A stretch of DNA of 26,254 bases from a virus (Duplodnaviria; Caudoviricetes), in IMG/VR virus record IMGVR_UViG_3300047564_003057, positions 1 to 26,254 of that record; one strand, 5' to 3'. A program made the position numbers and the translations under genes. Below, one piece after another: positions 1-23,863 of this stretch. The stretch's first letter is position 1. Each line of letters begins with the position of its first letter. The notes below the pieces were generated by a model, which was not told the DNA's origin, ran no database searches, and saw nothing but the letters and a program-made list of their open reading frames with translations.

Positions 1-1016
1 GTACTCAAGGTATCCAGGGCACTCAAGGAACCCAAGGTATCCAGGGCACTCAAGGAACCCAAGGTATTCAGGGTATCCAGGGAACTCAAGGAACTCAAGG
101 TGTCCAGGGTATCCAGGGTATTCAGGGAACTCAAGGTATCCAGGGCACTCAAGGAACTCAAGGTGTCCAGGGAGTTCAAGGTATTCAGGGAACTCAAGGA
201 ACCCAAGGTGTTCAAGGTATCCAGGGCACTCAAGGAACCCAAGGTATTCAGGGCACTCAAGGAACCCAAGGTGTTCAGGGAGTTCAGGGAACCCAAGGAA
301 CTCAAGGTGTTCAGGGCACTCAAGGTGTTCAGGGAACTCAAGGAACCCAAGGTGTTCAAGGTATCCAGGGCACTCAAGGAACTCAAGGTGTTCAAGGTAT
401 CCAGGGAACTCAAGGAACCCAAGGTGTTCAAGGTATCCAGGGCACTCAAGGAACTCAAGGTGTTCAAGGTATCCAGGGAACTCAAGGAACTCAGGGTGTC
501 CAAGGAATCCAGGGTATCCAAGGAACTCAAGGTGTTCAAGGTATCCAGGGAACTCAAGGAACTCAGGGTGTCCAAGGAATCCAGGGTATCCAAGGAACTC
601 AAGGTGTTCAAGGAAGACAAGGAACTACAGGTACTCAAGGTATCCAGGGAACTCAGGGAACTCAGGGAGTTCAAGGTATTCAGGGAACTCAAGGAACCCA
701 AGGTGTTCAAGGTATCCAGGGCACTCAAGGAACTCAAGGTATTCAGGGCACTCAAGGAACTCAAGGTATTCAGGGCACTCAAGGAACTCAAGGTGTTCAA
801 GGAACTCAAGGTGTTCAGGGTACACAAGGAACTCAAGGTGTTCAAGGTATCCAGGGCACTCAAGGAACCCAAGGTGTTCAGGGAACCCAAGGTATTCAGG
901 GCACTCAAGGAACTCAAGGTGTTCAAGGTATCCAGGGCACTCAAGGAACCCAAGGTGTTCAGGGAACCCAAGGGGTCCAAGGAAGACAGGGAACTACAGG
1001 AACTCAAGGTGTTCAG
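1..1016 (+). repeat. Collagen-like block 1: at least 113 Gly-X-Y triplets (9-bp unit), almost all GTQ/GIQ/GVQ
   Basis: GGN-NNN-CAR 9-bp periodicity from the window start to GTK at 1017; the register is preserved. Confidence 0.95.
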
Positions 1017-4000
1017 GGAACCAAAGGTAATGATGGAAACTTCGGTGGAGCCACATTCGACTACACATTCAGTAATGACACTACAAATTCTGATCCTGGA
1101 GTTGGATTCTTAAAATTCAATAACCTGAATATAACTCTCGCATCATCACTTCATATAGATGATCAAGATGACAACAGCACTGATATCCAACCATTCCTAA
1201 GAACTATTGATGATTCCACATCAACAATTAAAGGACACTTCAGAATTTCAAATAGATTAGATGCTTCTGACTTTGCTCTGTTTACAATTTCTAGTGTAAT
1301 AGAAGAAACTGGATATTTCCATGTTAGCTGTTCTTATGTTTCAGGTAGTGCAACTGCATTTACTAATAATGAAGATGTAATCATTACCTTTGCTAGAACA
1401 GGAGATAAGGGTGATCAAGGAATTCAAGGAATTCAAGGAATTCAAGGTACTCAAGGTATCCAAGGAACTCAAGGAACTCAGGGCACTCAAGGTACTCAAG
1501 GAATCCAAGGTATTCAGGGTATTCAGGGTGAACAGGGAATCCAAGGTACACAAGGTAGACAAGGAACTACAGGTACACAAGGTGTCCAAGGAATCCAGGG
1601 CACTCAAGGAACCCAAGGTGTTCAAGGTATCCAGGGAACTCAAGGAACCCAAGGTATTCAGGGAACTCAAGGTGTTCAGGGCACTCAAGGAATCCAGGGC
1701 ACTCAAGGAACCCAAGGTGTTCAAGGTATCCAGGGAACTCAAGGAACTCAAGGTGTTCAAGGAAGACAAGGAACCACAGGAACTCAAGGAACCCAAGGTA
1801 TTCAGGGAACTCAAGGTGTTCAGGGCACTCAAGGAATCCAGGGTATCCAAGGAACCCAAGGAACCCAAGGTGTCCAGGGAGTTCAGGGAACCCAAGGAAC
1901 TCAAGGTGTTCAGGGCACTCAAGGTGTTCAGGGAACTCAAGGTATTCAGGGCACTCAAGGAACCCAAGGTGTTCAAGGTATCCAGGGAACTCAAGGAACT
2001 CAAGGTGTTCAAGGAAGACAAGGAACCACAGGAACTCAAGGAACCCAAGGTATTCAGGGAACTCAAGGTGTTCAGGGCACTCAAGGAACCCAAGGTGTCC
2101 AGGGTGTCCAGGGTGTCCAGGGCACTCAAGGAACTCAAGGTGTTCAAGGAATCCAGGGTATCCAAGGAACTCAAGGTGTTCAAGGAAGACAAGGAACCAC
2201 AGGAACTCAAGGGACCACAGGTTCTCAAGGAATCCAAGGTATTCAGGGCACTCAAGGAACCCAAGGTGTTCAAGGTATCCAGGGAACTCAAGGTATTCAA
2301 GGTATTACTGGTCCAGTAGCAGGATCCGCAAATCAAGTTGTTTATAAAGATGGTTCAAATAATCCAACTGGTTCTAATAACTTAACATTTAATGGAACTG
2401 CTCTCGGCATTGGAACAATTATTGATATTATTCCTTACGACAATTTAGAATCTCTCAGTTTTGAAGCATCTGCTGGACAGTTATTCTCTATTACAAATAA
2501 TTTGAGTTCTGGATCTATTTTTGCGGTCAATGATATTAGTGGAATTCCAAGTATTGATGTTGATGCGGATGGTACAGTTTTATTAGCACCATCAATTGGT
2601 AATATTGGTATAGGAGTAACAAATCCAACACAAAAACTTCATGTTTCAGGAAACTTAAGAGTTACTGGAGCAATTTATGATTCTAATAATGATGCTGGAA
2701 CAAATGGATTTGTTCTTAGGTCTACCGCAACAGGAACTGATTGGGTAGATCCAACAACAGTTTCTGGACTACAAGGTGTTCAAGGTATTCAAGGTAGACA
2801 AGGAACCACTGGAACTCAAGGTGTTCAAGGTATTCAGGGAACCACAGGAACTCAAGGAACTACAGGTTCTCAAGGTATTCAGGGTATTCAAGGAACCACA
2901 GGAACTCAAGGAACCACTGGAACTCAAGGAATCCAAGGAATCCAAGGTATTCAAGGTAGACAAGGAACCACTGGAACTCAAGGAACTACAGGTTCTCAAG
3001 GTATTCAGGGTATTCAAGGTATTCAGGGAACTCAAGGAACCATAGGTTCTCAAGGAACCACAGGTTCTCAAGGAATCCAGGGAATCCAAGGTATTCAAGG
3101 CAGACAAGGAACTACAGGAACTCAAGGAACCACAGGTTCTCAGGGAATCCAAGGAACCACAGGAACTCAAGGAACCACAGGTTCTCAAGGAATCCAAGGA
3201 ACCAAAGGTAATGATGGAAACTTTGGTGGAGCTACGTTTGATTATACATTCAATAATGACCTTACAAATTCCGATCCGGGAGTTGGATTCTTAAAATTCA
3301 GTAATTCAGATATAACTCTGGCGTCAGTACTCCATATAGATGATCAAGATGATAATGGAACTGATATCCAACCATTCCTAAGAACTATTGATGATTCCAC
3401 ATCAACAATTAAAGGACACTTCAGAATTTCAAATAGATTAGATGCTTCTGACTTTGCTCTGTTCACAATTTCGGGTATTACTGAGCAGACTGGATACTTT
3501 AACGTAAGTTGTGCTTATGTCTCAGGTAGTGCAACTGCATTTACTAATAATGAAGATGTAATTATTACCTTTGCTAGAACAGGAGATAAGGGTGATCAAG
3601 GAATCCAAGGAACCACAGGTTCTCAAGGTATTCAAGGAATCCAAGGAACCACAGGTACTCAGGGCATCCAGGGAATTCAAGGAAGACAAGGAACCACAGG
3701 TACTCAAGGAACAACAGGTACTCAGGGCATCCAGGGAATTCAAGGAACCACTGGAACTCAAGGGACCACTGGAACTCAAGGAACCACAGGTTCTCAAGGT
3801 GTTCAAGGAAGACAAGGAACCACTGGAACTCAAGGAACTACAGGTTCTCAGGGTATTCAGGGAACCACTGGAACTCAAGGAACCACAGGTTCTCAAGGTA
3901 TTCAGGGTATTCAGGGAACTCAGGGTGTTCAAGGTATTCAAGGTGTTCAAGGAAGACAAGGAACCACTGGAACTCAAGGAACTACAGGTTCTCAGGGTAT

Positions 4001-6137
4001 CCAGGGTATTCAAGGAACCACAGGAACTCAAGGAACCACAGGTTCTCAAGGTATTCAGGGAACCACAGGAACTCAAGGAACTACAGGTTCTCAGGGTATC
4101 CAGGGTATTCAAGGAACCACAGGAACTCAGGGTGTTCAAGGTGTTCAAGGAAGACAAGGAACCACTGGAACTCAAGGAACTACAGGTTCTCAAGGTATTC
4201 AAGGAACCACTGGAACTCAAGGAACGACAGGTTCTCAAGGTATTCAAGGAACCACTGGAACTCAAGGAACTACAGGTTCTCAAGGTATTCAAGGAATCCA
4301 AGGTATTCAAGGTAGACAAGGAACCACTGGAACTCAAGGAACTACAGGTTCTCAAGGTATTCAAGGTATTACTGGTCCAGTAGCAGGTTCGGCCAACCAA
4401 GTAGTTTATAAAGACTCATCTAATAATCCAACTGGTTCTAATAACTTAACATTTAATGGAACTGCTCTCAGTATTGGAACGATTATTGATATTGTTCCTT
4501 ATGATACTGTTAATTCAGGCACTCTTTCCTGGGAAGCATCTGCTGGACAGTTATTCTCTATCAGCAATAATCTCACATCTGGTTCTATTTTCTCTGTTAA
4601 TGATGTTTCCGGAATTCCAAGTATTGATGTTGATGCAAATGGAACAATTGAACTTGGACCTTATGGCGGAAACATTGGTGTGGGTGTAACAAATCCAACA
4701 CAAAAACTTCATGTTTCAGGAAACTTAAGAGTTACTGGAGCAATTTATGATTCTAATAATGATGCTGGAACAAATGGATTTGTTCTTAGGTCTACCGCAA
4801 CAGGAACTGATTGGGTAGATCCAACAACAGTTTCTGGACTACAAGGTGTTCAAGGTATTCAAGGTAGACAAGGAACCACAGGTACTCAGGGCATCCAAGG
4901 AACCATAGGTTCTCAAGGAACCACAGGTTCTCAAGGAATCCAGGGAATCCAAGGTATTCAAGGCAGACAAGGAACTACAGGAACTCAAGGAACCACAGGT
5001 TCTCAGGGAACCACAGGTACTCAAGGAACCACAGGAACTCAAGGAACTACAGGTTCTCAAGGTATTCAGGGTATTCAAGGAACCACAGGAACTCAAGGAA
5101 CCACTGGAACTCAAGGAATCCAAGGAATCCAAGGAATCCAAGGTATTCAAGGTAGACAAGGAACCACTGGAACTCAAGGAACTACAGGTTCTCAAGGTAT
5201 TCAAGGAACCACTGGAACTCAAGGAACTACAGGTTCTCAAGGTATTCAAGGAATCACAGGTATTCAAGGTCCTGGTGGATTAACAACAACTAATGCGGAC
5301 ACTCTCGACACCCTTGACAGTTCTCAGTTCTTAAGGTCTGATGCTGCCGACACTGCTTCAGGAAGAATTCAATTTACTGCTAATAATGATGTTTTAGAAA
5401 CTTCAACAGGTAGTTTAGGTAGTATAGAGATATATCAAGATACTGCTAGCGCAGATGCATTTATGGCATTCCACGTTGCTGGAGATTTCGCAGCATATTT
5501 TGGATTGAAAGGAGATATTAATGACTTTGCCGTTGGTGGTTGGTCAATGGGCAATGTTTACTATAAAGTATGGCACCAAGGGAACCAGGGATCTACTTCT
5601 GGCCTTGATGCTGACTTACTTGATGGACTCCATGAAACTACATTCTTCAGAAGAGCAGTTGATACTTGGAACACTTCGTCTGAGGGAATTGGTAGAATCT
5701 ATTTTGCATCCAGTGCTAGATCATATTATAAATCTCCTAATGGACATGAATTTAGAAGAAATGCTACTGATACTGCCACATTTACTATAGATGATAGTGG
5801 AAATTGTACTGCAGTTGGAAATGTAACTGCATACTCTGATATTTCACTGAAAAAAGATATTGAAGTTATCACTGATGCTATAGAAAAACTTGAAAAAATA
5901 AATGGAGTTACTTATGCCAGAAATGATATTGATACTGACAGAAGATATTGTGGAGTGATAGCACAAGAAGTTGAAAAAGTTCTTCCAGAAGTTATTGAGG
6001 AATCTGACGATGGTATAAAATCAGTTGCTTATGGCAATATGATTGGATTACTCATCCAAGCAATTAAAGAGCAACAAAGTCAGATAAATAGTCTCAATCA
6101 ACAAATTAATGAATTGAAAAAAGAAGAACATTCATGA
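1..6137 (+). CDS. Giant collagen-like tail fibre/appendage protein with C-terminal S74 intramolecular chaperone; 5' end lies outside the window
   Basis: The frame with codons starting at 3 reads (G)TQGIQGTQ... and is the same frame as ORF 2502..6137. I found no in-frame stop in 1-2501, including the non-repetitive parts 1020-1400 and 2310-2501, so TTG 2502 is internal. It has five Gly-X-Y blocks, GNIGIGVTNPTQKLHVSGN fibre motifs, NADTLD and LDADLLDG motifs, and a terminal SDISLKKDI...GVIAQEVEKVLPE...LLIQAIKEQ segment. Confidence 0.9.
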   Translation, partial: TQGIQGTQGTQGIQGTQGTQGIQGIQGTQGTQGVQGIQGIQGTQGIQGTQGTQGVQGVQGIQGTQGTQGVQGIQGTQGTQGIQGTQGTQGVQGVQGTQGTQGVQGTQGVQGTQGTQGVQGIQGTQGTQGVQGIQGTQGTQGVQGIQGTQGTQGVQGIQGTQGTQGVQGIQGIQGTQGVQGIQGTQGTQGVQGIQGIQGTQGVQGRQGTTGTQGIQGTQGTQGVQGIQGTQGTQGVQGIQGTQGTQGIQGTQGTQGIQGTQGTQGVQGTQGVQGTQGTQGVQGIQGTQGTQGVQGTQGIQGTQGTQGVQGIQGTQGTQGVQGTQGVQGRQGTTGTQGVQGTKGNDGNFGGATFDYTFSNDTTNSDPGVGFLKFNNLNITLASSLHIDDQDDNSTDIQPFLRTIDDSTSTIKGHFRISNRLDASDFALFTISSVIEETGYFHVSCSYVSGSATAFTNNEDVIITFARTGDKGDQGIQGIQGIQGTQGIQGTQGTQGTQGTQGIQGIQGIQGEQGIQGTQGRQGTTGTQGVQGIQGTQGTQGVQGIQGTQGTQGIQGTQGVQGTQGIQGTQGTQGVQGIQGTQGTQGVQGRQGTTGTQGTQGIQGTQGVQGTQGIQGIQGTQGTQGVQGVQGTQGTQGVQGTQGVQGTQGIQGTQGTQGVQGIQGTQGTQGVQGRQGTTGTQGTQGIQGTQGVQGTQGTQGVQGVQGVQGTQGTQGVQGIQGIQGTQGVQGRQGTTGTQGTTGSQGIQGIQGTQGTQGVQGIQGTQGIQGITGPVAGSANQVVYKDGSNNPTGSNNLTFNGTALGIGTIIDIIPYDNLESLSFEASAGQLFSITNNLSSGSIFAVNDISGIPSIDVDADGTVLLAPSIGNIGIGVTNPTQKLHVSGNLRVTGAIYDSNNDAGTNGFVLRSTATGTDWVDPTTVSGLQGVQGIQGRQGTTGTQGVQGIQGTTGTQGTTGSQGIQGIQGTTGTQGTTGTQGIQGIQGIQGRQGTTGTQGTTGSQGIQGIQGIQGTQGTIGSQGTTGSQGIQGIQGIQGRQGTTGTQGTTGSQGIQGTTGTQGTTGSQGIQGTKGNDGNFGGATFDYTFNNDLTNSDPGVGFLKFSNSDITLASVLHIDDQDDNGTDIQPFLRTIDDSTSTIKGHFRISNRLDASDFALFTISGITEQTGYFNVSCAYVSGSATAFTNNEDVIITFARTGDKGDQGIQGTTGSQGIQGIQGTTGTQGIQGIQGRQGTTGTQGTTGTQGIQGIQGTTGTQGTTGTQGTTGSQGVQGRQGTTGTQGTTGSQGIQGTTGTQGTTGSQGIQGIQGTQGVQGIQGVQGRQGTTGTQGTTGSQGIQGIQGTTGTQGTTGSQGIQGTTGTQGTTGSQGIQGIQGTTGTQGVQGVQGRQGTTGTQGTTGSQGIQGTTGTQGTTGSQGIQGTTGTQGTTGSQGIQGIQGIQGRQGTTGTQGTTGSQGIQGITGPVAGSANQVVYKDSSNNPTGSNNLTFNGTALSIGTIIDIVPYDTVNSGTLSWEASAGQLFSISNNLTSGSIFSVNDVSGIPSIDVDANGTIELGPYGGNIGVGVTNPTQKLHVSGNLRVTGAIYDSNNDAGTNGFVLRSTATGTDWVDPTTVSGLQGVQGIQGRQGTTGTQGIQGTIGSQGTTGSQGIQGIQGIQGRQGTTGTQGTTGSQGTTGTQGTTGTQGTTGSQGIQGIQGTTGTQGTTGTQGIQGIQGIQGIQGRQGTTGTQGTTGSQGIQGTTGTQGTTGSQGIQGITGIQGPGGLTTTNADTLDTLDSSQFLRSDAADTASGRIQFTANNDVLETSTGSLGSIEIYQDTASADAFMAFHVAGDFAAYFGLKGDINDFAVGGWSMGNVYYKVWHQGNQGSTSGLDADLLDGLHETTFFRRAVDTWNTSSEGIGRIYFASSARSYYKSPNGHEFRRNATDTATFTIDDSGNCTAVGNVTAYSDISLKKDIEVITDAIEKLEKINGVTYARNDIDTDRRYCGVIAQEVEKVLPEVIEESDDGIKSVAYGNMIGLLIQAIKEQQSQINSLNQQINELKKEEHS
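1017..1400 (+). repeat. Globular spacer domain A, copy 1 (about 125 aa)
   Basis: GNDGNFGGATFDYTF...DPGVGFLKF...IDDSTSTIKGHFRIS...EDVIITFART, repeated at 3198-3581 (offset 2181). Confidence 0.9.
1401..2309 (+). repeat. Collagen-like block 2: 101 triplets
   Basis: From GDK at 1401 to GPV at 2310 is 909 nt, i.e. 101 x 9. Confidence 0.92.
2310..2765 (+). repeat. Globular/beta spacer domain B, copy 1 (about 150 aa)
   Basis: GPVAGSANQVVYKD...GQLFSI...GIPSIDVDA...GNIGIGVTNPTQKLHVSGNLRVTG...WVDP, repeated at 4374-4835. Confidence 0.9.
2766..3197 (+). repeat. Collagen-like block 3: 48 triplets, rich in GTT/GTQ/GSQ/GIQ
   Basis: From GLQ at 2766 to GTK at 3198 is 432 nt. Confidence 0.92.
3198..3581 (+). 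repeat. Globular spacer domain A, copy 2
   Basis: Colinear with 1017-1400; 3360-3463 is identical to 1179-1282. Confidence 0.9.
3582..4373 (+). repeat. Collagen-like block 4: 88 triplets
   Basis: From GDK at 3582 to GPV at 4374 is 792 nt. Confidence 0.92.
4374..4835 (+). repeat. Spacer domain B, copy 2
   Basis: Colinear with 2310-2765 apart from a 6-nt indel; 4686-4879 is identical to 2616-2809. Confidence 0.9.
4836..5267 (+). repeat. Collagen-like block 5: 48 triplets
   Basis: From GLQ at 4836 to GPG at 5268 is 432 nt. Confidence 0.92.
5835..6134 (+). other. Peptidase S74-type intramolecular chaperone (auto-cleaved) domain of the fibre
   Basis: AY-SDISLKKDI (Ser/Lys dyad pattern SDxxLK), G-V-I-A-Q-E-V, and a terminal coiled coil LIQAIKEQQSQINSLNQQINELK. 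Confidence 0.88.
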
Positions 6138-6154
6138 TAAGTTAGAAACGACTT

Positions 6155-8707
6155 ATGACATTACCTGCTTCAGGATCAATATCACTATCAGATATTCACC
6201 AAGAGTTCAGTGGGGATACTGCTCCAACTACAGCAGGTCCACTAGAACTTGGTGAATATTATGGTCAGGATAATGCTCCAACGAGTGGTGCTATAAGTTT
6301 TTCAAATTTTTATAGTACAGATGGTGTCCCAGCAAGTGGACTTCAACTTCATTGGGATGGGCAAATATCAGAGAGTAACGCTGGTACAGGTGGAGTTGAA
6401 GATATAGGAACTTTTGACAGAAACGGAACCCTTACAAATGGAGCATCTTATAGTGCTACTGATAAGGGTATCATAGTGTTTGATGGTGTTGATGATTGTG
6501 TTAATTTTACGGCGTATAAAGGAATTACAGGTGCTACAGCAAGAACTTCTATAATATTTGTAAAACTAGACGCGGCAACACCATCAGTAGTTCAAAGAAT
6601 ATTTGCCTGGGGAAATCCTGCCACTAACGGCCGAAAGTGGTCAATGGAACTACTCACCAATGGCTGTTTTAATATGGGTGTTGGTGGTGGATATAAACAA
6701 ACTTATATTTCATTTACAGGAAACCAGTGGAATATGTTTTCTGCTACCTGGGGTGGTGGAAGCGGATTTCCTCCTACAGACCCAATAACATCTTTTGCTG
6801 TTGTTGGTTCTGTAGTCAGTGGAACTGGTGTTCCCGGTGGTACTACCGTTACTGCCATTGATGCGAGTACAAATACAATTACTCTATCAAACAATCTTAG
6901 TAGTACAATATCATTAGCAACTCTCACTTTCACAAACAATTATCTTCTTGCGACTGGTGGTTCTGGAGGTTCTTCTACTGATAGTGGTGCTAGTGGAGGA
7001 GGAACTGGAGGAACTTCCAGTGGTCTTGAAAGAGATGGTGGTGGAAACGGCGGATCAGGTGGTTCTACTAGTGACTCAACTACTGGTGCTGGTGGCGGTG
7101 GTGGTGCTGCAGGATATACTGGAAATGGTGGCGAGGGTGCTGACAGAGGTGCTAACAATGCGACTTCTGGGGGAACTGGTGGAGGTGGTGGTGGTGGTGG
7201 CAGCGGCGGTGCTAGCAACGGTGGTGCCGGTGGTGGTGGAACAGGTCTAAGAGCAGCTGGTCAGACCAACAGTGGTGCCGCAGGAAGTGGAACCACAGGT
7301 GGCGGTGGTGGATCGGGTGGAACTAATGGAAGTAACTCTACTGGAAGTACTGGTGCTAATGGAGGCACTCAGTATGGTGGTGGTGCTGGTGGTGGAAGAA
7401 ATCTTGCTGATGGTGGAGATGCTGGACCTGGAGCAGCAAGAATTATTTGGGGTGCTGGTAGGTCTTATCCAGCAACAAGTGTCGCAGATAGTGGAACCAA
7501 CCAATCAGTTTTCACTACATCTGGAACATTTACCGTTCCAGCAGGAGTCACCCAAATTTCTGCGGTTGTTATTGCTGGTGGTGGTGGTGGAGGTAATGCC
7601 ACTGATGATGATGAACCAGGTGCGGGCGGTGCTGGTGGTGGTCTAGCATATGGTACTTGGACTGTTACGGCAGGAACTCAATTTACAGTTACCATTGGTT
7701 CTGGAGGACAAAATGGTGTAACTGGTGGAACTGGTGGTTCTTCCAGTATTTCGCGTTCAAGCACAGCATCTGCGACTGGAACTATAGGAACCAATACAAT
7801 TGTAGTAGGAACTCCTGGTGGCAATGATACTCCAAATATTACCTTATATCACAATGCTCAGCAATTAGTTAATTATTTTACTTCAGCACAGACTATTGAT
7901 ACATCTAATGATATTGATGTTCAGATCGGAACAAATACAGGATTAACTTACACGGATGGTCAAGTTGCGAAAGCTTTAATTTACAATAGAGCACTTAGTC
8001 ATTCTGAAATCGCACAAATTTATAACGCAAAGGCAGTTGCTCTCGGACTATCTCAAGCAGCAGCAACAACTGAAGCGCCTATCGTAGTAGAATTTGTAAC
8101 AGCAGGAACTCATATATTTGGAGCGGGTGGAAATTCATTTACAATTACTGGAATTCAATCTGGAGACTTTATAATTGTTGCGGGAGCAGCAGACAATACT
8201 AACATCACTGGTCCAACTGGATTCACTAATGGTGGTAATGATGGTGGAAGTAGTGAACCTGTTAGTTATTGGGGATATGTTTTTGCTACAGGAACATCAT
8301 ATACGGTTAGTGGATTACAAGGATCAACAACAGCAGGCAGTCAATGTGTCTACATTTATATGGTCTTTAGGAATGTAAATGCTACAACTCCTATTGATGT
8401 TTCATCAGGACCTACAGGTTCCTTAGACCCACCATCAATCACAACTAATTTTAATGGTTGTATGATTGTTGCTTTGGCAATGGTTGATGATGACAACCAG
8501 GCACCTAATGTGACTGCTCCAACTGGTTATACTTTGGCTGCTGCTGAAGATGTTGGAACAACAGGAAATGACCTTAACGGAGCAACTGTTATGGGAGCAT
8601 ATAAGCAACAAACTACAGCAGGAGTTGAAAATCCTGCAGCATTTACTATTGGTAGCACTGATTCGTATGATTCTTATACGATATCATTAAGATCGGTACT
8701 AACATAA
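6155..8707 (+). CDS. Putative fibre-tip adhesin: N-terminal attachment motif, split LamG/ConA-like domain, glycine-rich domain, C-terminal beta-sandwich
   Basis: 850-aa ORF 17 nt after the fibre stop. N-terminus MTLPASGSISLSDI...EF...EYYG...SGAISFSNFY. LamG motifs LQLHWDG, FDGVDD, QWNMFSATW and ...LIYNRALSHSEIAQIYN. Poly-Gly tracts with FTTSGTFTVPAGVT and GAARIIWG. Confidence 0.8.
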   Translation: MTLPASGSISLSDIHQEFSGDTAPTTAGPLELGEYYGQDNAPTSGAISFSNFYSTDGVPASGLQLHWDGQISESNAGTGGVEDIGTFDRNGTLTNGASYSATDKGIIVFDGVDDCVNFTAYKGITGATARTSIIFVKLDAATPSVVQRIFAWGNPATNGRKWSMELLTNGCFNMGVGGGYKQTYISFTGNQWNMFSATWGGGSGFPPTDPITSFAVVGSVVSGTGVPGGTTVTAIDASTNTITLSNNLSSTISLATLTFTNNYLLATGGSGGSSTDSGASGGGTGGTSSGLERDGGGNGGSGGSTSDSTTGAGGGGGAAGYTGNGGEGADRGANNATSGGTGGGGGGGGSGGASNGGAGGGGTGLRAAGQTNSGAAGSGTTGGGGGSGGTNGSNSTGSTGANGGTQYGGGAGGGRNLADGGDAGPGAARIIWGAGRSYPATSVADSGTNQSVFTTSGTFTVPAGVTQISAVVIAGGGGGGNATDDDEPGAGGAGGGLAYGTWTVTAGTQFTVTIGSGGQNGVTGGTGGSSSISRSSTASATGTIGTNTIVVGTPGGNDTPNITLYHNAQQLVNYFTSAQTIDTSNDIDVQIGTNTGLTYTDGQVAKALIYNRALSHSEIAQIYNAKAVALGLSQAAATTEAPIVVEFVTAGTHIFGAGGNSFTITGIQSGDFIIVAGAADNTNITGPTGFTNGGNDGGSSEPVSYWGYVFATGTSYTVSGLQGSTTAGSQCVYIYMVFRNVNATTPIDVSSGPTGSLDPPSITTNFNGCMIVALAMVDDDNQAPNVTAPTGYTLAAAEDVGTTGNDLNGATVMGAYKQQTTAGVENPAAFTIGSTDSYDSYTISLRSVLT

Positions 8708-8732
8708 ATTAATTTAGAGTTTCTATTTTTGT

Positions 8733-8933
8733 ATGAGATACGCAGTCATAGATTCTAACAACTATGTTGTAAATATTGTTTTATGGGATGGAGTTTCCGA
8801 ATGGTCACCAGGACCAGGATTGAGTTTAATACAAATACAAGAAGAACAATTTGTTGATATTGGGTGGACTTATGATGAAGAAACTGGTTTGTTTATAAAC
8901 CCAATACTGCCAGTCGGAATTGGGACCACTTAA
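8733..8933 (+). CDS. Small tail-fibre-assembly-like protein
   Basis: 66 aa with YAVID..VVNIVLWDG and IGWTYD...F..P motifs, typical of small proteins that follow phage fibre genes. Confidence 0.7.
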   Translation: MRYAVIDSNNYVVNIVLWDGVSEWSPGPGLSLIQIQEEQFVDIGWTYDEETGLFINPILPVGIGTT

Positions 8934-8939
8934 ACCTAT

Positions 8940-8947
8940 AATAAATA
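8940..8947 (+). promoter_or_regulatory. T4-type late promoter-like box (AATAAATA) upstream of the glyco-cluster
   Basis: One mismatch to TATAAATA, located in the 30-nt gap before ORF 8964. Confidence 0.55.
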
Positions 8948-8963
8948 GGCATATATTTACACT

Positions 8964-9956: not shown

Positions 9957-10683
9957 TTGTTTTCCATACTTTGATGAAAAAGAATTGTTAGAACTTAGAA
10001 TAAACTTGCTTTATGAACATGTAGACAAGTTTATCATTTGCGATGCTGATAGAAGTTATGACGGTAAACCTAAACCATTTACATGTAAAAATGTTATTGA
10101 TACATTAGGACTTCCTCAAGAAAAAATTCAAATTTTGGAAGTAAATCTCCCAAATAATCATATAAATTCTTGGACTTCTCCTAGTTTGTTGAGAGAAAGA
10201 ATGCAAAGAAATGCAGCAGAATCTCTTATGGAGGATGGTGATATTTTTATCATTAGTAATTTAGATGAAATTATCAATCCAGATTTTATTGAGTATTATT
10301 CAAATGTGGTAACACAAAATCCGAATAATATTCTTAGGATTCCTATGGCATTTTTAAAAGATGGAGCGAATTCTAGAGTTTATGGGCATGATAATCAACC
10401 CATTACTTGGAATGCTGCTTTTTTATGCATGAAAAATCATTTGAATGAATACACCTTTTCTGATATTAGAGAGTCTTATATTAAACAATCAAATTACATA
10501 CAATTTCCTAATATTTTTGTAACAGAAAACAATGTAGTAGAAGATGCTGGATGGAAATTTTTTATTTCAAACAATTTAAATGAAGTTGTAGAAGAACATA
10601 CATTAAAACCATACCCATTAAATCTTTTACCCCAAAAGATTTTTGACTTGGATAGAGTTAAAAAATTTCTTGCTGTCATTTAA
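9943..10683 (+). CDS. GT17 (GnT-III-like) glycosyltransferase homologue with degenerate motifs
   Basis: IIDCFPYFDEKELLELRINLL..VDKFII...GKPK, RERMQRN, IISNLDEI and AGW. Overlaps the upstream gene by 14 nt. Confidence 0.7.
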   Translation: MRIIDCFPYFDEKELLELRINLLYEHVDKFIICDADRSYDGKPKPFTCKNVIDTLGLPQEKIQILEVNLPNNHINSWTSPSLLRERMQRNAAESLMEDGDIFIISNLDEIINPDFIEYYSNVVTQNPNNILRIPMAFLKDGANSRVYGHDNQPITWNAAFLCMKNHLNEYTFSDIRESYIKQSNYIQFPNIFVTENNVVEDAGWKFFISNNLNEVVEEHTLKPYPLNLLPQKIFDLDRVKKFLAVI

Positions 10684-10695
10684 AGATTTTAAATA

Positions 10696-11667
10696 ATGAA
10701 AAATATAGTGTTTCATTGCAACTCTTTGAATGAGAGGGGAACATCAGTTTCTGTTTTTGATTATGCTTTTTATTGTAGAAAATATTTGAACTTAAATCCA
10801 TTCATTATGTATGATTTAAATTATGAAAATAATGAGGATTCTGTTTTTAATTTTAAAAAACAATTCGAAACCATTGGTTATAACTCATTTATCAATGTTC
10901 AAAGTTTTATAGACAAAAAAAATATTGATTATTTTTATGCAATTAAATATGGAACAACAGATGGAATTTTAGTAGAAAACTCTAAGAATTTAATTCATTC
11001 TGTTTTTTGTTCTGACACATCTCAAATTCACGGTGATAGATATGCCACAATTTCAGAGTGGATGACTAAAAGATGTAACTATCAAATACCGTTTGTACCA
11101 CATATGATAAATCTTCCATCCAATGAAGGTGATTGGAGAAGAAAACTTAACATTCCCAAAGATGATGTGGTAATTGGAAGGTATGGTGGAAAAGAGACAT
11201 TTAATATTGATTTTGTCTCAGAATGTATTCTGGATATTTTATATGAAAGAAGTGACATTTGGTTTTTATTTTTAAATACTGAAAATAAAATAAACCATGA
11301 AAGATGTTTATATTTTGATTCCATAATAGATTTACATAGTAAGGTCGAATTTATCAATACATGCGATTCTTTTTTACACGCAAGAGATTATGGAGAAACT
11401 TTTGGTCTTTCTATTTTAGAGTTTGCTTCTAAAAATAAGCAAATAATTTCTTATGATAATGAAGAGTTTCAAAATAATCACCCTTTGGGCGGAAGAAATC
11501 ATTTTTTATTTTTAAGAGATAATTGCTATAAGTACTATGATAAAAGTAGTCTTAAATATATTCTTTTAAATATTAGTAGGAATAATCCATTTGATACTAC
11601 ATATTTAAATGAAGAATTTTCTCCACAATCTGTAATTAAAAAATTTGAAGAGGTTTTTATAGAATGA
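10696..11667 (+). CDS. GT-B fold (GT4-like) glycosyltransferase
   Basis: N-terminal LNERGTSVSVFDYA, IGRYGG, and FINTCDSFLHAR..GETFGLSILE (EX7E motif). Confidence 0.8.
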   Translation: MKNIVFHCNSLNERGTSVSVFDYAFYCRKYLNLNPFIMYDLNYENNEDSVFNFKKQFETIGYNSFINVQSFIDKKNIDYFYAIKYGTTDGILVENSKNLIHSVFCSDTSQIHGDRYATISEWMTKRCNYQIPFVPHMINLPSNEGDWRRKLNIPKDDVVIGRYGGKETFNIDFVSECILDILYERSDIWFLFLNTENKINHERCLYFDSIIDLHSKVEFINTCDSFLHARDYGETFGLSILEFASKNKQIISYDNEEFQNNHPLGGRNHFLFLRDNCYKYYDKSSLKYILLNISRNNPFDTTYLNEEFSPQSVIKKFEEVFIE

Positions 11668-13814
11668 ACTATGCTTATATTTTTGTCGATAACTTAAATG
11701 GACATTCTTACAAAAATGGTTTAGATGAATTGAGAGCATCTATATCCACATTAAAGAAAAATCAAATTTATAATACCATTCAAATTTTTAACAATGAATT
11801 TGATGGAAAAAATGTTGAATATTTTGGGGTGGAAAAAATAGTTCACAATCATTTTAACATATCAAGAAATTATGGAGGTTCAAATAATATAAACCCAATC
11901 AATATTCTTGTGGAAAAAATAATTCAACTCATGAATTTTGATGAAAATCAAGATATTGTTTTAATGGATATTGATACATCTTCACAAAAAACAATTCCTA
12001 AAGATTTTTTTAATTCCAACTATATTGTTTTTGACACTGTCGAGTATCCGATAATGCAGTGGAGGAACTTGGATAAAGTTCTTCCACAGATTCCTTGGAA
12101 AGATTTTGATGTTAATTTTGACAGTTCTTTTATGATGTATAATACTGGAGTAATATACATTCCAAAGAAATTTAGAAAGGAACTTTGTGAAAAGGCATTA
12201 AAACTTGTTGATTATATGAATTATAATTTTGATCCATCTGAAAGGTGTGGAAATAAATTGGATGAGCAAATTGCTTTAAGTATTGTCTGTCATGATGCTT
12301 ATGGAAGATTTGGAAATATTAAATATTCTTCAGATTATATTCATCATCATTGGGAAGATAGACAAAAAGGTATAGAGTGGTGGAAAAAAATAATAGTTGA
12401 AGATAGATTCAATGACTTTATTGAATCCCATTATCAAACATGCGTGAAGCAGGTTAATCAAATTAAATCTATTCTGGAAAAAAAGGTTATTATTGATGTT
12501 GGAAGTAATATTGGTCTTTTTTCTAAAGCAATAGCAGAAAATGTTGATTATGAACACATTTACTTATTTGAACCATCGATAGAATATTTTAATAAAAGTA
12601 AGGAAATATTAAAGAGTTTTTCCAATATTACATATAATAATTGTGGTCTTGATTTATGTAATAAAAAACTAACTCTTTTTAAAGACAATAAAAATATCGG
12701 GTGGAATACCATCTACACTAAAGACCCAATGCAGAGTGAGACATTTTATAAAAAAATGGTTTCTGAGGAAATAAATGTTGTCAAACTTGATGATTATTAC
12801 AAAGATATAGAAGATGTTGGTTTTATAAAAATAGATGTTGAAGGTTATGAAAGAAATGTTTTGGAAGGTTCTTGGGACATAATTAAAAAATTTAAACCTT
12901 ATATTTTAATAGAAGTTTCTTGGGGTACAAATCATCCAGATTGGGAACTTAACAAGAACACTTACGAAAAGTTATTCTCGCTAGGGTATGAAAAAGTAGA
13001 TTTTTCAAATCATACTGAAGATATTTTATTTAAACCAATAATCAATGTAAATAAACTTCCAATTTCGATAGGAATTCTTTCTTGGAAATCAAATCAAACT
13101 CTAAGAAATACTCTAAACTCTTATCAAAGGAATGGATTATTTGATATTGTCGATAATGTTGTATTATTTTTTCAAGAAATTTCCGAAGAAGATAGAATTC
13201 TTGCCAAAGAATACAATCTTCCATATATTTCAACGGAAGAAAATATTGGAATAGGAGGCGCTTTTATAAAACTTGCAGAGGTTTTAAAAGAAGAAAATAT
13301 ACTATTATTGGAGCATGATTGGGAACTAACTGAAGATATCAAAACAACATTTTTACAATTAAAGCAAGGTGTAGAATTATTAGATAAAGATTATAATTGT
13401 ATTAGACTTAGAAGTGTTGAGAATCCTGGTCATCCACTTTACTCTCAAAATGTCTATGAGGGAAATGAATTGAATCATTACGATCCTTCAATAGATTTAA
13501 TATCTCCCCATTTATTTGAATGTCGACATTGGATACAAAATGTAGATGAGGTTTTTCCAGATAAAATTAAAAAGGAAAATAATTACTTTACAACAACAAG
13601 TAGATGGAGCAATTTTACAAACAATCCTTGTTTATACAAAAAAGATTTTTATATAAGCAGTATACGCCCCTTTGAGAAGAAAGGTTCTCTTTATGATGGT
13701 TTGGAGTTGAATGTTAGTCATTGGTGGGGAAGGCAAGATTTTAAAATTGCTTGGGGTAAGGGGATTTTTACACACAATGATATTGAAAAATATGGACCTA
13801 ATACTACAGTCTAA
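11664..13814 (+). CDS. Three-domain fusion: GT-A nucleotide-sugar transferase, FkbM-family methyltransferase, GT2-like transferase
   Basis: First domain LMDID, YNTGVIY, DEQIALS, IHHHW. Second IIDVGSNIG, LFEP, FIKIDVEGYE. Third SIGILSW, NIGIGGA, LLLEHDW, FTNNP. ATGA overlap with the upstream gene. Confidence 0.78.
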   Translation: MNYAYIFVDNLNGHSYKNGLDELRASISTLKKNQIYNTIQIFNNEFDGKNVEYFGVEKIVHNHFNISRNYGGSNNINPINILVEKIIQLMNFDENQDIVLMDIDTSSQKTIPKDFFNSNYIVFDTVEYPIMQWRNLDKVLPQIPWKDFDVNFDSSFMMYNTGVIYIPKKFRKELCEKALKLVDYMNYNFDPSERCGNKLDEQIALSIVCHDAYGRFGNIKYSSDYIHHHWEDRQKGIEWWKKIIVEDRFNDFIESHYQTCVKQVNQIKSILEKKVIIDVGSNIGLFSKAIAENVDYEHIYLFEPSIEYFNKSKEILKSFSNITYNNCGLDLCNKKLTLFKDNKNIGWNTIYTKDPMQSETFYKKMVSEEINVVKLDDYYKDIEDVGFIKIDVEGYERNVLEGSWDIIKKFKPYILIEVSWGTNHPDWELNKNTYEKLFSLGYEKVDFSNHTEDILFKPIINVNKLPISIGILSWKSNQTLRNTLNSYQRNGLFDIVDNVVLFFQEISEEDRILAKEYNLPYISTEENIGIGGAFIKLAEVLKEENILLLEHDWELTEDIKTTFLQLKQGVELLDKDYNCIRLRSVENPGHPLYSQNVYEGNELNHYDPSIDLISPHLFECRHWIQNVDEVFPDKIKKENNYFTTTSRWSNFTNNPCLYKKDFYISSIRPFEKKGSLYDGLELNVSHWWGRQDFKIAWGKGIFTHNDIEKYGPNTTV

Positions 13815-13817
13815 ATA
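13811..13817 (+). promoter_or_regulatory. Possible late promoter variant (CTAAATA) overlapping a stop codon
   Basis: TAAATA core at the start of the only sizeable gap in the cluster; weak evidence given the AT-rich background. Confidence 0.3.
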
Positions 13818-13929
13818 AGATAGTTTATTACCAAAGTAATCATAATTAAACAAAGACAATTTGTTAGAGGTGATTACAAAATCATACTCAATAATGAGTG
13901 AATTTATTATTAAATGGAAATCTAAAGCT

Positions 13930-15792
13930 ATGTTAAGAACTGACATCATAAACATTTTGATTAAAAAGATTGGTGCTAAGAAATATTTGGAGATTGGCGT
14001 TTCAAATGGAATTAATTTATCACAAATAGATTGTGAGTATAAAATTGGAGTAGACCCCGATCTTAATAGTCCAGCAAATGTTCATTTAACTTCTGACGAT
14101 TTTTTTTATAAAAATGAAGAAACTTTTGATATCGTGTTTATAGATGGATTACATCATTATGACCAAGTTTATAAAGACATATTGAATTCTTTAGATGTAT
14201 TAAATGATGGTGGATATATCGTTTGCCATGATATGAATCCTTGGCAGGAAGATATCCAAATAATTCCATACAATCCACAAATTCACACTCTCTGGACTGG
14301 AGATTGTTGGAAGGCATTTGTTCGTCTAAGAAGGGAACGAGAAGATTTGGAAATGTATGTGGTTGATACTGATTGTGGATGTGGAGTAATAAAAAAAGGA
14401 TCCCAAAAATGTTTAGAGGGGAATGAAGATTTAAACTGGGGTAATTTGGAAAAAAATCGTCAAGAATGGTTGAATTTGATTTCTAAAGAAAATTTTGTAG
14501 AAAAAATACAATATACAGTTTCCAATTCTAATGACTTTGATAATCTATTAAGGACCTATATTTTTTCACCAGAAGATCCTGAAAATAATTACAATCTTGG
14601 TGTTTACTATGAAAAAATTGGGCAGACTGCTTCAGCAGTCTCATATTATCTAAGAGCGGCGGAAAGATATGATAATGCTTTATGTAAATATGAATCATTA
14701 ATTCGTGCTTCTATCTGTTTTGATAAGCAAGGTACTAGAAATTTTACCGTGAAAAGTTTACTTTTACATGCTCTAGCAATATGTCCCAAAAGACCAGAGG
14801 CATATTATCTAATGAGTTGTCATTATGAAAAATCTGAAGGTGATGGTCATTGGAATGACTGCTATACAATAGCATCAATAGGATTAGGAGTTTCGGAATT
14901 AAATCCAGAACCACTAAAAACAGATTTAGGATATCCAGGAGAATATGCTCTTATTTTTCAGAGAGCATTAAGTTCTTGGTGGTGTGGTCTATGCGAAGAA
15001 TCTAAGAGTACATTTTTAGATCTTCTGGAAAATTACAATATGAATGAGCAATTTAAAAATTCTGCTATAGAATGTTTAAAACTAATGAATTATGAGTATG
15101 ATACTACTATCAGTCTGACTCCTTTTAGTAAATATAATAAAAATAAATTCGATAGACTAAAATATAAATTTAAAGGATCTGAAAATATTAAAGAAAATTA
15201 TTCGGAAGCATATCAAGATATTTTTGTTTTGACAATGCTAAACGGAAAGAGGGAAGGAACATACTTAGAATTAGGTGCAGGAAGTCCTTTTTATGGAAGT
15301 AATACGGCTTTATTGGAGAGGGATTTTAATTGGAAGGGAGTAGCACTTGATCTTGATGAGGCATTTGTAAATTCACATTCGAAAGAAAGAAAAAACCCAT
15401 GTCTCTTAAAGGATGGAATAACTACAAATTATGAATCTTTATTGGCATCGTTAGATTTTCCAAAAGAAATTGATTATTTACAATTGGATTGCGATCCACC
15501 ATCAGTAACATATCAAATTCTTTTAACCATTCCATTTGAAAAATATAAGTTTGCGACAATTACTTATGAGCATGATTATTATTGTGACGAAACAAAATCT
15601 TATCAAAATAAGTCAAAAAAATATTTGGAAAGTTTTGGATATGTAAGAATTTTTAACAATATTTCACCAGACAATAATAGATCATATGAAGATTGGTGGG
15701 TTCATCCCGATTTGATAGATTCTAAAATTATATCAGAATTAATGGTTATTGATGATACTATAAAGAAGGGAGAAGATATTTTTGTATTATGA
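13930..15792 (+). CDS. Fusion: class I SAM methyltransferase, TPR region, FkbM-like methyltransferase
   Basis: YLEIGV, DIVFIDGLH, GGYIVCHD; helical repeats YNLGVYYEKIGQTASAVSYY and PKRPEAYY; YSEAYQD, YLELGAG, GSNT, IDYLQLDCDP, EHD, EDWW. ATG 13930 is preferred to TTG 13861 because the methyltransferase domain begins there. Confidence 0.78.
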   Translation: MLRTDIINILIKKIGAKKYLEIGVSNGINLSQIDCEYKIGVDPDLNSPANVHLTSDDFFYKNEETFDIVFIDGLHHYDQVYKDILNSLDVLNDGGYIVCHDMNPWQEDIQIIPYNPQIHTLWTGDCWKAFVRLRREREDLEMYVVDTDCGCGVIKKGSQKCLEGNEDLNWGNLEKNRQEWLNLISKENFVEKIQYTVSNSNDFDNLLRTYIFSPEDPENNYNLGVYYEKIGQTASAVSYYLRAAERYDNALCKYESLIRASICFDKQGTRNFTVKSLLLHALAICPKRPEAYYLMSCHYEKSEGDGHWNDCYTIASIGLGVSELNPEPLKTDLGYPGEYALIFQRALSSWWCGLCEESKSTFLDLLENYNMNEQFKNSAIECLKLMNYEYDTTISLTPFSKYNKNKFDRLKYKFKGSENIKENYSEAYQDIFVLTMLNGKREGTYLELGAGSPFYGSNTALLERDFNWKGVALDLDEAFVNSHSKERKNPCLLKDGITTNYESLLASLDFPKEIDYLQLDCDPPSVTYQILLTIPFEKYKFATITYEHDYYCDETKSYQNKSKKYLESFGYVRIFNNISPDNNRSYEDWWVHPDLIDSKIISELMVIDDTIKKGEDIFVL

Positions 15793-17183
15793 ATAGGAAA
15801 AAAATAGCATTTGATATTGGTTCTTGTAAAGGGGAATCTATTGAAAAATTTAAAGATTATGACGAAATTTATTGTTTTGAACCTTGCTCCTTCTCTTTCA
15901 AAAAACTTAAAGAAAACTTTGAAAGTGACTCCAGAATAAAATTTTTTAATGTTGCGATATCAAATAAAAATGGATTATCAAAGTTCTATTTTTATTATCA
16001 TTATGCGTATTCATCATTAAATGAAATTGACAATGAGGGAGAATTTTCCAAATTTTGTGAAGAATTTGATCCTGGATTTGATAAATTGGAAGAAATTGAA
16101 TTGGTTGAAACTTTAAGATTAGACTATTTCATAAATGAAAATAATATAGATTTTATTGATTATTTAAAAATCGATACTCAAGGAAGTGATTTAAATGTTA
16201 TTAAATCTTTGGGAAAAATGATTTCTATAGTAGATACTATAGAACTTGAAGTTCAGTTGAAATCGCTATATAAGAATTCACCATCGGAAGAAGATGTATT
16301 CAATTATATGGAAGAAAATAATTTCTTTCTTTCTTCCAACGAAAGTAATGGTTTGGGATTAGATGAATTTGAAAGAAAATTAATTTTTAAAAATAAAAAT
16401 TTGTCTATACCAGTTATTGGAACTGCGGTTGTAAATAGTTCACATTGGGTTAAACGCCTTTTAAAAAGTATTGATTATCCAGTTGAGAACTTTTTTATTG
16501 TCAATAATAATGGGAAAGGAGAACTTGATGATGAATTGGAAGAACTTAAAAAAGAAAATAATCCTTATGTAAAAAATATAAAAATTTGTAATTTACCTGG
16601 AAATATCGGATGTTCGGGCGCTTGGAATTTAATTATAAAATGCTTTATAATGTCACCATATTGGATTATTGTAAATGATGATGTTGCTTTTGATAAAGGA
16701 TTTTTAGAAGAGATGGTAAATACTTCAAGAGAAAATTCTGATGCTGGTGTTATTCACGGTCTATCTGGAGATTTTGATGTTGGTAGTTGGGATCTTTTCT
16801 TGATAAAAGATTTTGTTATAAAAAAACTTGGTTTGTTTGATGAAAATTGCTATCCAGCATATTGTGAAGATGTGGACTATTTAATGAGATTGATAAATTC
16901 AAATACAAAGCGTATCACATCACTAAATTCAAATTATTTTCATGGAGATGGAAACAAAGAAGAGTATTACACTCACGCGAGTCAAACAAGTAAGAAAGAT
17001 CCAGAATTATCAGTTTTATTAAGATATTCTCATGATCTAAATATGGAATATTTGAATGGTAAATGGGGACCACATTGGAGAGGTTGTAGTCCAAATAAAT
17101 TACCATTCTTAGATAAAGAAAGATCTTTATCCGAAACTACTTATGATTTGGAATTTTTAAGAAAAAAATATACAGGATTTTAA
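15789..17183 (+). CDS. Fusion: FkbM-family methyltransferase and GT2-like glycosyltransferase
   Basis: FDIGSCKG, CFEP, YLKIDTQGSD; then IPVIGTAVVN, NIGCSGAWN, IVNDDV and FDENCYPAYCEDVDY. ATGA overlap with the upstream gene. Confidence 0.8.
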   Translation: MNRKKIAFDIGSCKGESIEKFKDYDEIYCFEPCSFSFKKLKENFESDSRIKFFNVAISNKNGLSKFYFYYHYAYSSLNEIDNEGEFSKFCEEFDPGFDKLEEIELVETLRLDYFINENNIDFIDYLKIDTQGSDLNVIKSLGKMISIVDTIELEVQLKSLYKNSPSEEDVFNYMEENNFFLSSNESNGLGLDEFERKLIFKNKNLSIPVIGTAVVNSSHWVKRLLKSIDYPVENFFIVNNNGKGELDDELEELKKENNPYVKNIKICNLPGNIGCSGAWNLIIKCFIMSPYWIIVNDDVAFDKGFLEEMVNTSRENSDAGVIHGLSGDFDVGSWDLFLIKDFVIKKLGLFDENCYPAYCEDVDYLMRLINSNTKRITSLNSNYFHGDGNKEEYYTHASQTSKKDPELSVLLRYSHDLNMEYLNGKWGPHWRGCSPNKLPFLDKERSLSETTYDLEFLRKKYTGF

Positions 17184-17186
17184 ATT

Positions 17187-17813
17187 ATGGCATTAATATT
17201 AAATGGCGATGGGGCACAAATCAATGACAGATCTAAAGGAACACTTTGGGTTGTAGACAATTACTATAAAGATCCTTATGCTATTAGAGATTTTGCCCTA
17301 CAACAAGAATATGGAGAAGGTGGATTTGGTAGAGGTTTTATGGGAAATAGAACCGGTGAACAATTTATTGTTGATGGTACCAAAGAATCTTTTGAAAGAA
17401 TAATGGGTAAAAAAATCACTAATTGGACAGAAACATATCAAGTTTGTGGGGTTTTTCAATACTGTACAGCAAAAGATCATTTGGTATACCATGCTGATTC
17501 TCAAATGTATGCGGGTGTTGTTTATTTAACTCCGGATGCTCCTTATGAAACTGGAACTTCGTTGATTGCACATAGGAAAACTAGAGTAAGGCACTCAAGT
17601 GAACCAGGTGCAGATGAAATGTGGGCAGATGCTGCTCCTACAGGATGTTTTGTGGATTCAACTCCCTGGCAAGAAGTTGATGTAGTTGGAAATGTATTTA
17701 ACAGATTGGTATTATGGGATGGTCATTGTCCACATACAGCTTCAAAATATTTTGGATTTACTAAAGAGACATCTAGATTATTTCACATATTCTTTTTTGA
17801 TGTTGAAGAATAA
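17187..17813 (+). CDS. 2OG-Fe(II) oxygenase superfamily protein (DUF6445-like)
   Basis: VVDNYYKDP, HxD motif (YHAD), GVVYLTP..P...GT, FNRLVLWD...H, and distal R in SRLFHIFFF. Confidence 0.72.
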   Translation: MALILNGDGAQINDRSKGTLWVVDNYYKDPYAIRDFALQQEYGEGGFGRGFMGNRTGEQFIVDGTKESFERIMGKKITNWTETYQVCGVFQYCTAKDHLVYHADSQMYAGVVYLTPDAPYETGTSLIAHRKTRVRHSSEPGADEMWADAAPTGCFVDSTPWQEVDVVGNVFNRLVLWDGHCPHTASKYFGFTKETSRLFHIFFFDVEE

Positions 17814-17815: not shown

Positions 17816-17829
17816 TATAAATATAAATA
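17816..17829 (+). promoter_or_regulatory. Two overlapping perfect T4 late promoter boxes (TATAAATA at 17816 and 17822)
   Basis: Sequence TATAAATATAAATA ends 16 nt before ATG 17846. Confidence 0.8.
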
Positions 17830-21333: not shown

Positions 21334-21374
21334 TCCTGTTCATTGACTGTTTCCCCACTGAAACTTTAGGTTTT

Positions 21375-21410
21375 CCTAAATATTTTTTAGATAAACTGAG
21401 ATTCAGGAGA
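21375..21410 (+). promoter_or_regulatory. Late promoter variant (CCTAAATA) and AGGAGA ribosome binding site of gp18
   Basis: CTAAATA at 21376-21382; AGGAGA at 21405-21410, 7 nt before ATG 21418. Confidence 0.55.
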
Positions 21411-21417
21411 AAATTAA

Positions 21418-23829: not shown

Positions 23830-23849
23830 TTAGATAAATTAATTACAGA

Positions 23850-23855: not shown

Positions 23856-23863
23856 ACTCAAAA

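Follow-up and report, generated by a model that had tools for sequence, protein, structure and literature searches.

Gene Content of the Locus

We analyzed a window of 26,254 nucleotides (nt), that is, the whole of the virus record IMGVR_UViG_3300047564_003057, a single 26 kb fragment in which a collagen-like fiber gene is followed by a cluster of genes for sugar-modifying enzymes. Judged by its gene content, the virus is a T4-like myovirus, since genes for the large terminase, the sheath, the tube, and a T4-type portal are located at 19445-26171, which places the fiber and the cluster in the g15-g18 variable region. Our comparative analysis points to a GH130-like β-propeller and a tetratricopeptide repeat (TPR) domain as the conserved unit of this cluster (hereafter the module), and links this unit to phage collagens built of Gly-X-Gln triplets. 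The features of the locus are as follows:

3..6137, + strand: collagen-like fiber, 5′ end open, 2044 amino acids (aa) visible, with an S74 chaperone at the C-terminus; putative substrate
6155..8707, + strand: putative adhesin, Gly-rich and LamG-like (LamG match below cut-off)
8733..8933, + strand: 66-aa protein matching only PHROGs of unknown function, named a small assembly gene in the first-pass annotation and at most a candidate for that role
8940..8947, + strand: late-promoter box AATAAATA, about 24 nt 5′ of the propeller start
8964..9956, + strand: core propeller, predicted β-mannosyl transferase/phosphorylase with a five-bladed β-propeller of GH130/GT108 fold
9943..10683, + strand: accessory GT17-like gene (Pfam GT17), eroded
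10696..11667, + strand: accessory GT4/GT-B-like glycosyltransferase, a weak assignment through homologs
11664..13814, + strand: accessory fusion of GT8-like, FkbM methyltransferase, and GT2-like domains, with a conserved DxD at D102/D104 in the GT8-like domain
13894..15792, + strand: fusion of Methyltransf_24, TPR, and FkbM-like domains (Pfam and homolog evidence)
14509..15108, + strand: core TPR domain, putative substrate-binding or scaffold part
15789..17183, + strand: FkbM methyltransferase fused to a GT2 domain (Pfam), the GT2 part at 16398-17180
17187..17813, + strand: DUF6445 2-oxoglutarate (2OG)-Fe(II) oxygenase with an intact HxD...H...R motif (H102-x-D104, H183, R197)
17816..17823, + strand: late-promoter box TATAAATA, predicted to restart the packaging and tail genes and marking the end of the cluster
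19445..26171, + strand: T4-like core genes (large terminase, sheath, tube, portal)

The fiber open reading frame (ORF) contains 409 Gly-X-Y triplets in five blocks, together with two kinds of repeated globular inserts. The Y position is occupied by Gln in 332 triplets and by Thr in 62, and the X position mostly by Thr, Ile, or Val (Thr 192, Ser 24). A first-pass annotation of the sequence had described a Thr-rich, Pro-free collagen fiber, and this description is borne out almost literally, with Pro in only three triplets, all of them GPV or GPG. The fiber contains two copies of a non-collagen insert of about 116 aa (window 1053-1400, with a repeat near 3234-3581); this insert has no Pfam match, and is shared with Pelagibacter phage HTVC010P, DSL-LC01, Caulobacter phage DMCA, and two huge phage records.

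The cluster consists of seven co-oriented genes (8964-17813) that are tightly packed, as previously noted, with intergenic gaps of -14 to +12 nt except for 79 nt before the ATG at 13894. Direct Pfam matches were obtained for two FkbM, one Methyltransf_24, GT17, GT2, TPR, and DUF6445 domains, which confirms the TPR domain and the oxygenase. Regarding the five glycosyltransferase (GT)-like and four methyltransferase domains counted at first, GT17, one GT2, and three methyltransferases are thus matched directly, whereas the GT4-like domain, the second GT2-like domain, and the fourth, FkbM-like, methyltransferase are seen via homologs only, and the GT8-like domain through a language-model atlas only. 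The GT17-like gene differs from most of eight aligned homologs in three motifs (SDCDEI to SNLDEI, which removes the DxD, HxG to YDG, and GWHFSW to GWKFFI) and in a deletion of about 45 residues, and is possibly inactive. Profile matches revealed no nucleotide-sugar gene among the 16 proteins of this 26 kb fragment, in agreement with the first reading of the window.

The late-promoter-like box reported at 8940 is also present. This box, AATAAATA, has one mismatch relative to TATAAATA of T4 and fits the cyanophage late consensus NATAAATA exactly (PMC2984593), and its location 5′ of the cluster is that of a T4-like late unit. The window has five ATAAATA boxes on the plus strand. All but one of them sit 23-71 nt 5′ of where a gene begins; the remaining box, at the window edge, overlaps the end of the portal gene.

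Conservation of the Propeller and the TPR Domain

The propeller matched 605 viral stretches (about 1,600 are estimated in total), from which the best 80 were retrieved. L001 is identical to the window and was set aside, so that 79 propeller loci were counted; these were not dereplicated and comprise 43 distinct ones. A TPR domain is encoded in 74 of the 79 loci, and in 66 of the 67 for which 5 kb or more of downstream sequence is available. The commonest accessory transferase is GT2 (45 loci), with the C-terminal FkbM-like domain and the oxygenase at similar counts (44 and 41), while GT17 (14), the GT4-like gene (4), and parts of the gene at 11664 (1-3) are rarer. A homolog of the adhesin (6155-8707) is present in only two loci, and the adhesin therefore falls outside the conserved unit. 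The seven genes had been proposed to form one dedicated system, a claim that does not hold because only the propeller and the TPR domain are conserved.

Both domains are frequently found in one polypeptide. Propeller-TPR fusions, in both orders, account for 32 of 68 representatives longer than 450 aa, three of them also with the oxygenase, which is sometimes fused to the propeller and/or the TPR domain. Eight of the 120 top long homologs are propeller-TPR fusions and most others carry radical-SAM, FkbM, or GT2 domains. The partners seen in fusion with the propeller include TPR, methyltransferase, GT2, GT17, and radical-SAM domains.

Regarding distribution, the 50,697 GenBank phage records contain three propeller and two TPR matches, the latter in the same two close carriers. 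These nearest carriers bear Synechococcus phage labels, and one of them, DSL-LC02, is reported to be metagenome-assembled (PMC10611076). In a species-genome collection searched with two peptide patterns, we found 12 propeller loci, all on contigs of metagenome-assembled genomes (MAGs) or bins of 2-61 kb. The TPR domain adjoins or is fused to the propeller in all 12, a Gly-X-Gln collagen is present in the flank of five, and phage genes are visible in at least two. Because of the TPR linkage, the fusions, and the mostly phage occurrence, the conserved unit is, on this comparative evidence, the propeller plus the TPR domain, largely confined to phages and accompanied by variable tailoring enzymes.

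Several other genes were observed around the module. In L135 (4052-4660), an HNH/endonuclease VII-like gene lies between propeller and TPR. A radical SAM/SPASM domain is often fused to or located 3′ of the propeller (P0005-P0120; L019:12257-13174), which suggests that other lineages include an unusual step in tailoring the glycan. In 12 loci (e.g., L058:10259-11014), a gene near the module encodes a fusion of a cytidylyltransferase with a mannose-6-phosphate-isomerase-like cupin, which could possibly supply the sugar donor. Finally, a sulfotransferase and other 2OG oxygenases recur 5′ of the module among fiber genes (L067:1010-1834 and 12 other loci).

Association of the Module With Gly-X-Gln Collagens

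On the collagen side, with the enzymes ignored, a Gly-X-Gln DNA pattern retrieved 155 loci, 78 of them with flanks, which formed 57 groups; the propeller or the TPR was present in the flank of 19 of these groups. Among 48 groups picked by the S74 chaperone, the module was found in three of the five with a Gly-X-Gln collagen and in none of the 43 lacking one (p = 6e-4); a near relative of the window is among the three positive groups. Neither propeller nor TPR was found in the flanks of 62 groups picked by the large terminase (75-91% identical). At the level of whole records (46 of 50 examined), the propeller was present in 16 of 29 collagen-selected records and in 0 of 17 controls; after one collagen-bearing control was moved across and one control with four pattern matches was dropped, the counts were 16 of 30 with collagen vs. 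0 of 15 without (p = 2e-4). Conversely, 14 of 23 propeller records contained the Gly-X-Gln pattern vs. 2 of 17 controls (40 of 42 examined). Eighteen of these 23 had been picked for having no nearby collagen, and nine of the 18 had collagen elsewhere; when only the eight propeller records at least 38% complete are considered, seven contain the pattern. The occurrence of the cluster independently of collagen fibers, which the first-pass annotation had named as an observation that would speak against its proposal, was thus looked for, and the association with collagen stood up both in comparison with two control sets and at the level of whole records.

The genomic context adds to these counts. 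In L166 and L136 the gene order is gp13-14-15-16, collagen, propeller, because of which fiber and cluster likely entered the g16-g17 gap together. Propeller and collagen are also found together in phages whose portal and capsid families are unrelated (L140, L088), and in L140 propeller and TPR abut two collagen genes. Similar collagen DNA matches 88 GenBank records, just three of them Synechococcus phages, of which two have the module and S-CRM01 does not. DSL-LC01, a distant propeller carrier, encodes a collagen with the same insert domain, without this TPR, and the cultured phage S-SCSM2R carries both the module and a Gly-X-Gln collagen (ORF204). In L106 (2-13000), a single ORF directly 5′ of the propeller has about 1,100 Gly-X-Gln triplets, very long for a phage collagen.

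It is conceivable, though in our view unlikely, that the module glycosylates other virion proteins (adhesins, S74 fibers, capsid, or sheath) and that collagen is a marker of elaborate decorated appendages. Many propeller loci follow non-collagen fiber or structural genes, the module of L027 lies between the small and large terminase genes without a fiber, and PMC12619734 cites work that locates mycobacteriophage glycans on capsid and tail tube. However, the module is absent from all 43 collagen-free S74-fiber groups and all 15 collagen-free control records, and the genes that propeller and TPR abut in L140 are collagen genes.

Members of the GT2, GT4, GT8, and FkbM families often take part in polysaccharide synthesis. 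A cluster containing them could remodel the host surface (lipopolysaccharide/O-antigen or exopolysaccharide), as has been proposed for the GT islands of cyano- and pelagimyophages (PMC7029224). In line with this proposal, some loci lie among nucleotide-sugar genes, and the S-SCSM2R propeller (ORF194) is annotated as MGP among cell-wall genes (PMC12801897). Nevertheless, host-surface remodeling predicts neither the near-obligate TPR partner nor the association with collagen, close homologs in the species-genome collection are limited to the 12 short MAG or bin contigs, at least two with phage genes, and a late-promoter box precedes the cluster; we regard it as distinctly unlikely.

A fourth type of target would be DNA, as phage pathways exist in which oxygenases, methyltransferases, and glycosyltransferases make glycosylated bases (10.1101/2023.12.21.572611, PMC13326640), and one domain of the cluster matches PHROGs labelled 'DNA methyltransferase'. 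Such hypermodification is very improbable here: Pfam and NCBIfam searches of the cluster proteins gave no DNA cytosine methyltransferase or TET/JBP family, the domains being FkbM, Methyltransf_24, and DUF6445, and the locus is embedded in late structural genes and goes with collagen.

Resemblance of the Propeller to GH130 Enzymes

The window propeller is closest to the GH130 five-bladed β-propeller fold, and its PF04041 score is 12.8 bits, under the gathering threshold of 26 bits; 20 of 45 propeller homologs match PF04041 at E-values up to 0.1 (best 2e-4). Its conserved residues are N36-P37, R51, E121-D122, K181, R228, H245, Y261, and D309. In weak local alignments, D122, R51, E121, and D309 align to solved GH130 members, and these four are kept in 51-53 of 54 homologs. 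K181 and H245 are invariant and R228 is kept in 49 of 54, their putative equivalence to the phosphate-binding Arg/His pair and the +1 Lys being taken from motif order. The protein is thus GH130-like in fold and key residues, yet it stays below the family cut-off.

The nearest relatives are the GH130 β-1,2-mannoside phosphorylases/transferases (Teth514_1788, Uhgb_MS, Lin0857) and the GT108 Leishmania MTPs (PMC12814180, PMC7660257), with which the propeller shares the five blades, the catalytic Asp motif, the +1-subsite Arg/Glu/Asp, and the E/K β-1,2 signature, at 11-16% identity. Known members are reported to be nearly all single-domain proteins acting on free oligosaccharides, whereas the phage propellers are tied or fused to TPR. 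In addition, two propeller domains per chain were observed in the distant relatives P0241, P0253, P0258, P0262, and P0269, and the propeller gene is split over two frames in L088 (7980-8953) and G056:C1 (13439-14346), by a frameshift or an assembly error.

Given that the closest solved folds are phosphorylases, the propeller might instead work in the breakdown direction, by phosphorolysis of β-mannosides to mannose 1-phosphate (Man-1-P) for donor supply or trimming, or might be a co-inherited lineage trait without action on collagen. A donor-supply role is conceivable since there are no nucleotide-sugar genes in the window, and our association counts carry no lineage correction. In contrast, more than 99% of GH130 phosphorylases are reported to be single-domain (PMC7660257), unlike this multiply fused family, and the link to collagen recurs across unrelated portal and capsid families. 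We consider breakdown or co-inheritance quite improbable.

Proline and Threonine Content of the Collagens

Collagens linked to the module are poorer in Pro than unlinked ones, with a median per triplet of 0.008 (28 groups) vs. 0.031 (25 groups; p = 0.002). Four of the 57 groups were omitted from this comparison, since no collagen ORF was called in one and three had fewer than 30 triplets. Values of at least 0.07 per triplet were reached by none of the 28 linked groups and by five of the 25 unlinked ones, and among module-free collagens the two long ones of S-CRM01 have about 0.2 and that of IME08 has 0.45. Thr content showed no difference between linked and unlinked collagens, under a selecting pattern that itself demanded Thr. 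The Pro counts fit a model in which sugar would substitute for Pro in the helix. The precedent of the Riftia cuticle collagen reportedly concerns Thr in the Y position, unlike the window collagen, where Thr is mostly in X. The earlier suggestion that a glycan on Thr/Ser stabilizes a Pro-free helix thus gains from the lower Pro content of linked collagens and loses from the position and the unchanged amount of Thr.

Proposed Function of the Module

The explanation we favor, with slightly better than even confidence, is a late, cytoplasmic β-mannosylation and O-methylation of the phage's own collagen fiber. Late expression of the cluster would start at the NATAAATA box or result from transcription that reads through from the fiber genes, and the TPR domain would hold the collagen chain in the cytoplasm while the propeller-TPR unit adds β-linked mannose to a glycan on the Gly-X-Gln fiber. 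The propeller would act in the synthetic direction as an inverting transferase, with host α-Man-1-P or GDP-mannose (GDP-Man) as donor. The glycan would be carried on Thr/Ser hydroxyls, and in the window the GT2 domain at 16398-17180 would be the likely priming enzyme; β-1,2 extension of an already placed sugar is favored because of the E121/K181 signature. Variable glycosyltransferases would then extend the glycan and methyltransferases O-methylate it. In the weakest step of this scheme, the glycan might help the Pro-poor helix to hold, or might shield the fiber.

A more radical version, which we judge fairly unlikely, is that propeller and TPR constitute a new protein O-mannosyltransferase that places β-mannose directly on the Thr of Gly-X-Gln collagen from Man-1-P or GDP-Man, and that, where a 2OG oxygenase is fused to the pair, this enzyme hydroxylates Gln in the Y position. 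If true, this would represent an independent phage collagen-maturation machine replacing proline and hydroxyproline.

Several observations weigh against mannosylation of the fiber. The complete genome of S-CRM01 encodes Gly-X-Gln collagens and neither propeller nor TPR, and Gly-X-Gln fibers can therefore exist without the module. L055, the exception among the eight better-assembled propeller records, has no Gly-X-Gln pattern and instead a Gly-Ser/Phe-Thr collagen, and L040 combines the module with a Pro-rich collagen (0.19 per triplet). The module is often distant from the collagen gene and can follow, for example, nrdB, RNA ligase, small terminase, or nucleotide-sugar genes, and a late box lies 5′ of the module in 10 of 43 dereplicated relatives vs. 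50 of 410 other starts, a modest enrichment. Characterized GH130s are reported to use oligosaccharides and to have weak transferase activity (PMC7660257). The association counts come from lineages that are not independent, mostly from fragmentary records, with control phages of different lineage and no phylogeny correction. Finally, the virion proteome text on S-SCSM2R names neither ORF204 nor ORF194/195 among the non-structural proteins detected, and gives no list of the 17 structural ones (PMC12801897). This silence is inconclusive, since ORF204 is a repeat protein and may be modified.

Comparison With Known Systems

In Clostridioides difficile, a TPR-bearing glycosyltransferase encoded beside a collagen-like gene, SgtA, is reported to O-glycosylate Thr of the collagen region of BclA3 (PMC7157674). 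Glycosylation of BclA, the Bacillus anthracis protein cited in the first-pass annotation, is confirmed by a review (PMC8968730). Like SgtA, the phage module links a sugar enzyme to TPRs and is tied genetically to a collagen-like gene rich in Thr. However, SgtA is a GT-A enzyme that uses UDP-GlcNAc on the Gly-Pro-Thr repeats of a spore protein (PMC7157674), whereas the phage system, known from genes alone, has a GH130-fold propeller as TPR partner and a nearly Pro-free Gly-X-Gln collagen. The propeller, and not a GT-A domain, is the constant TPR partner (GT2 is found in 45 of 79 loci), and the module is therefore not an SgtA-type member.

Mimivirus, with the collagen lysyl hydroxylase/glucosyltransferase L230 and a fibril glycogene cluster (PMC9614988), offers a similar set of Pro-poor collagens, 2OG oxygenase, glycosyltransferases, and sugar O-methyltransferase. 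In contrast to the reported action of L230 on Lys, the window collagen has Lys at only 4 of 409 Y positions and hence lacks the Y-position substrate for hydroxylysine glycosylation, and the oxygenase is present in about half of the loci.

We know of no GH130-TPR unit in mycobacteriophage virion glycosylation. In that system phage glycosyltransferases also modify their own particle (Freeman et al. 2023, as cited in PMC12619734 and PMC12801897), but the reported targets are capsid and tail tube, with no collagen fiber among them. The 'LPS' islands of cyano- and pelagimyophages are variable GT/methyltransferase clusters beside fiber genes in the g15-g18 variable region (PMC7029224, PMC12801897, PMC2984593), published as host-surface modification. 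The 'MGP' label of S-SCSM2R ORF194 is the one published annotation of the propeller, and the passages on it mention no TPR partner or collagen link (PMC12801897). Our literature search found no paper on a GH130-TPR-collagen link.

The usual reading of GT islands in aquatic T4-like phages is that they modify the host surface, on genomic grounds only (PMC7029224, PMC12801897). Now that an enzyme pair and a candidate substrate can be named, and a phage in culture (S-SCSM2R) has both, the question of the target becomes directly testable. Considering the roughly 1,600 propeller stretches estimated, fiber glycosylation could be common in aquatic phages. If true, it would add glycoprotein synthesis to the roles of the GH130 fold and show a way to make stable collagens that lack Pro.

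Other Genes in the Window

The ORF 5′ of the large terminase gene (17846-19420) encodes a 524-aa charged protein of mosaic make-up, with matches to DUF5661 and to several PHROGs of unknown function. This gene is preceded by a perfect late box, and relatives are found at the same position in 6 of the 79 propeller loci. An endonuclease VII-like gene is also present in the window, at 21091-21333.

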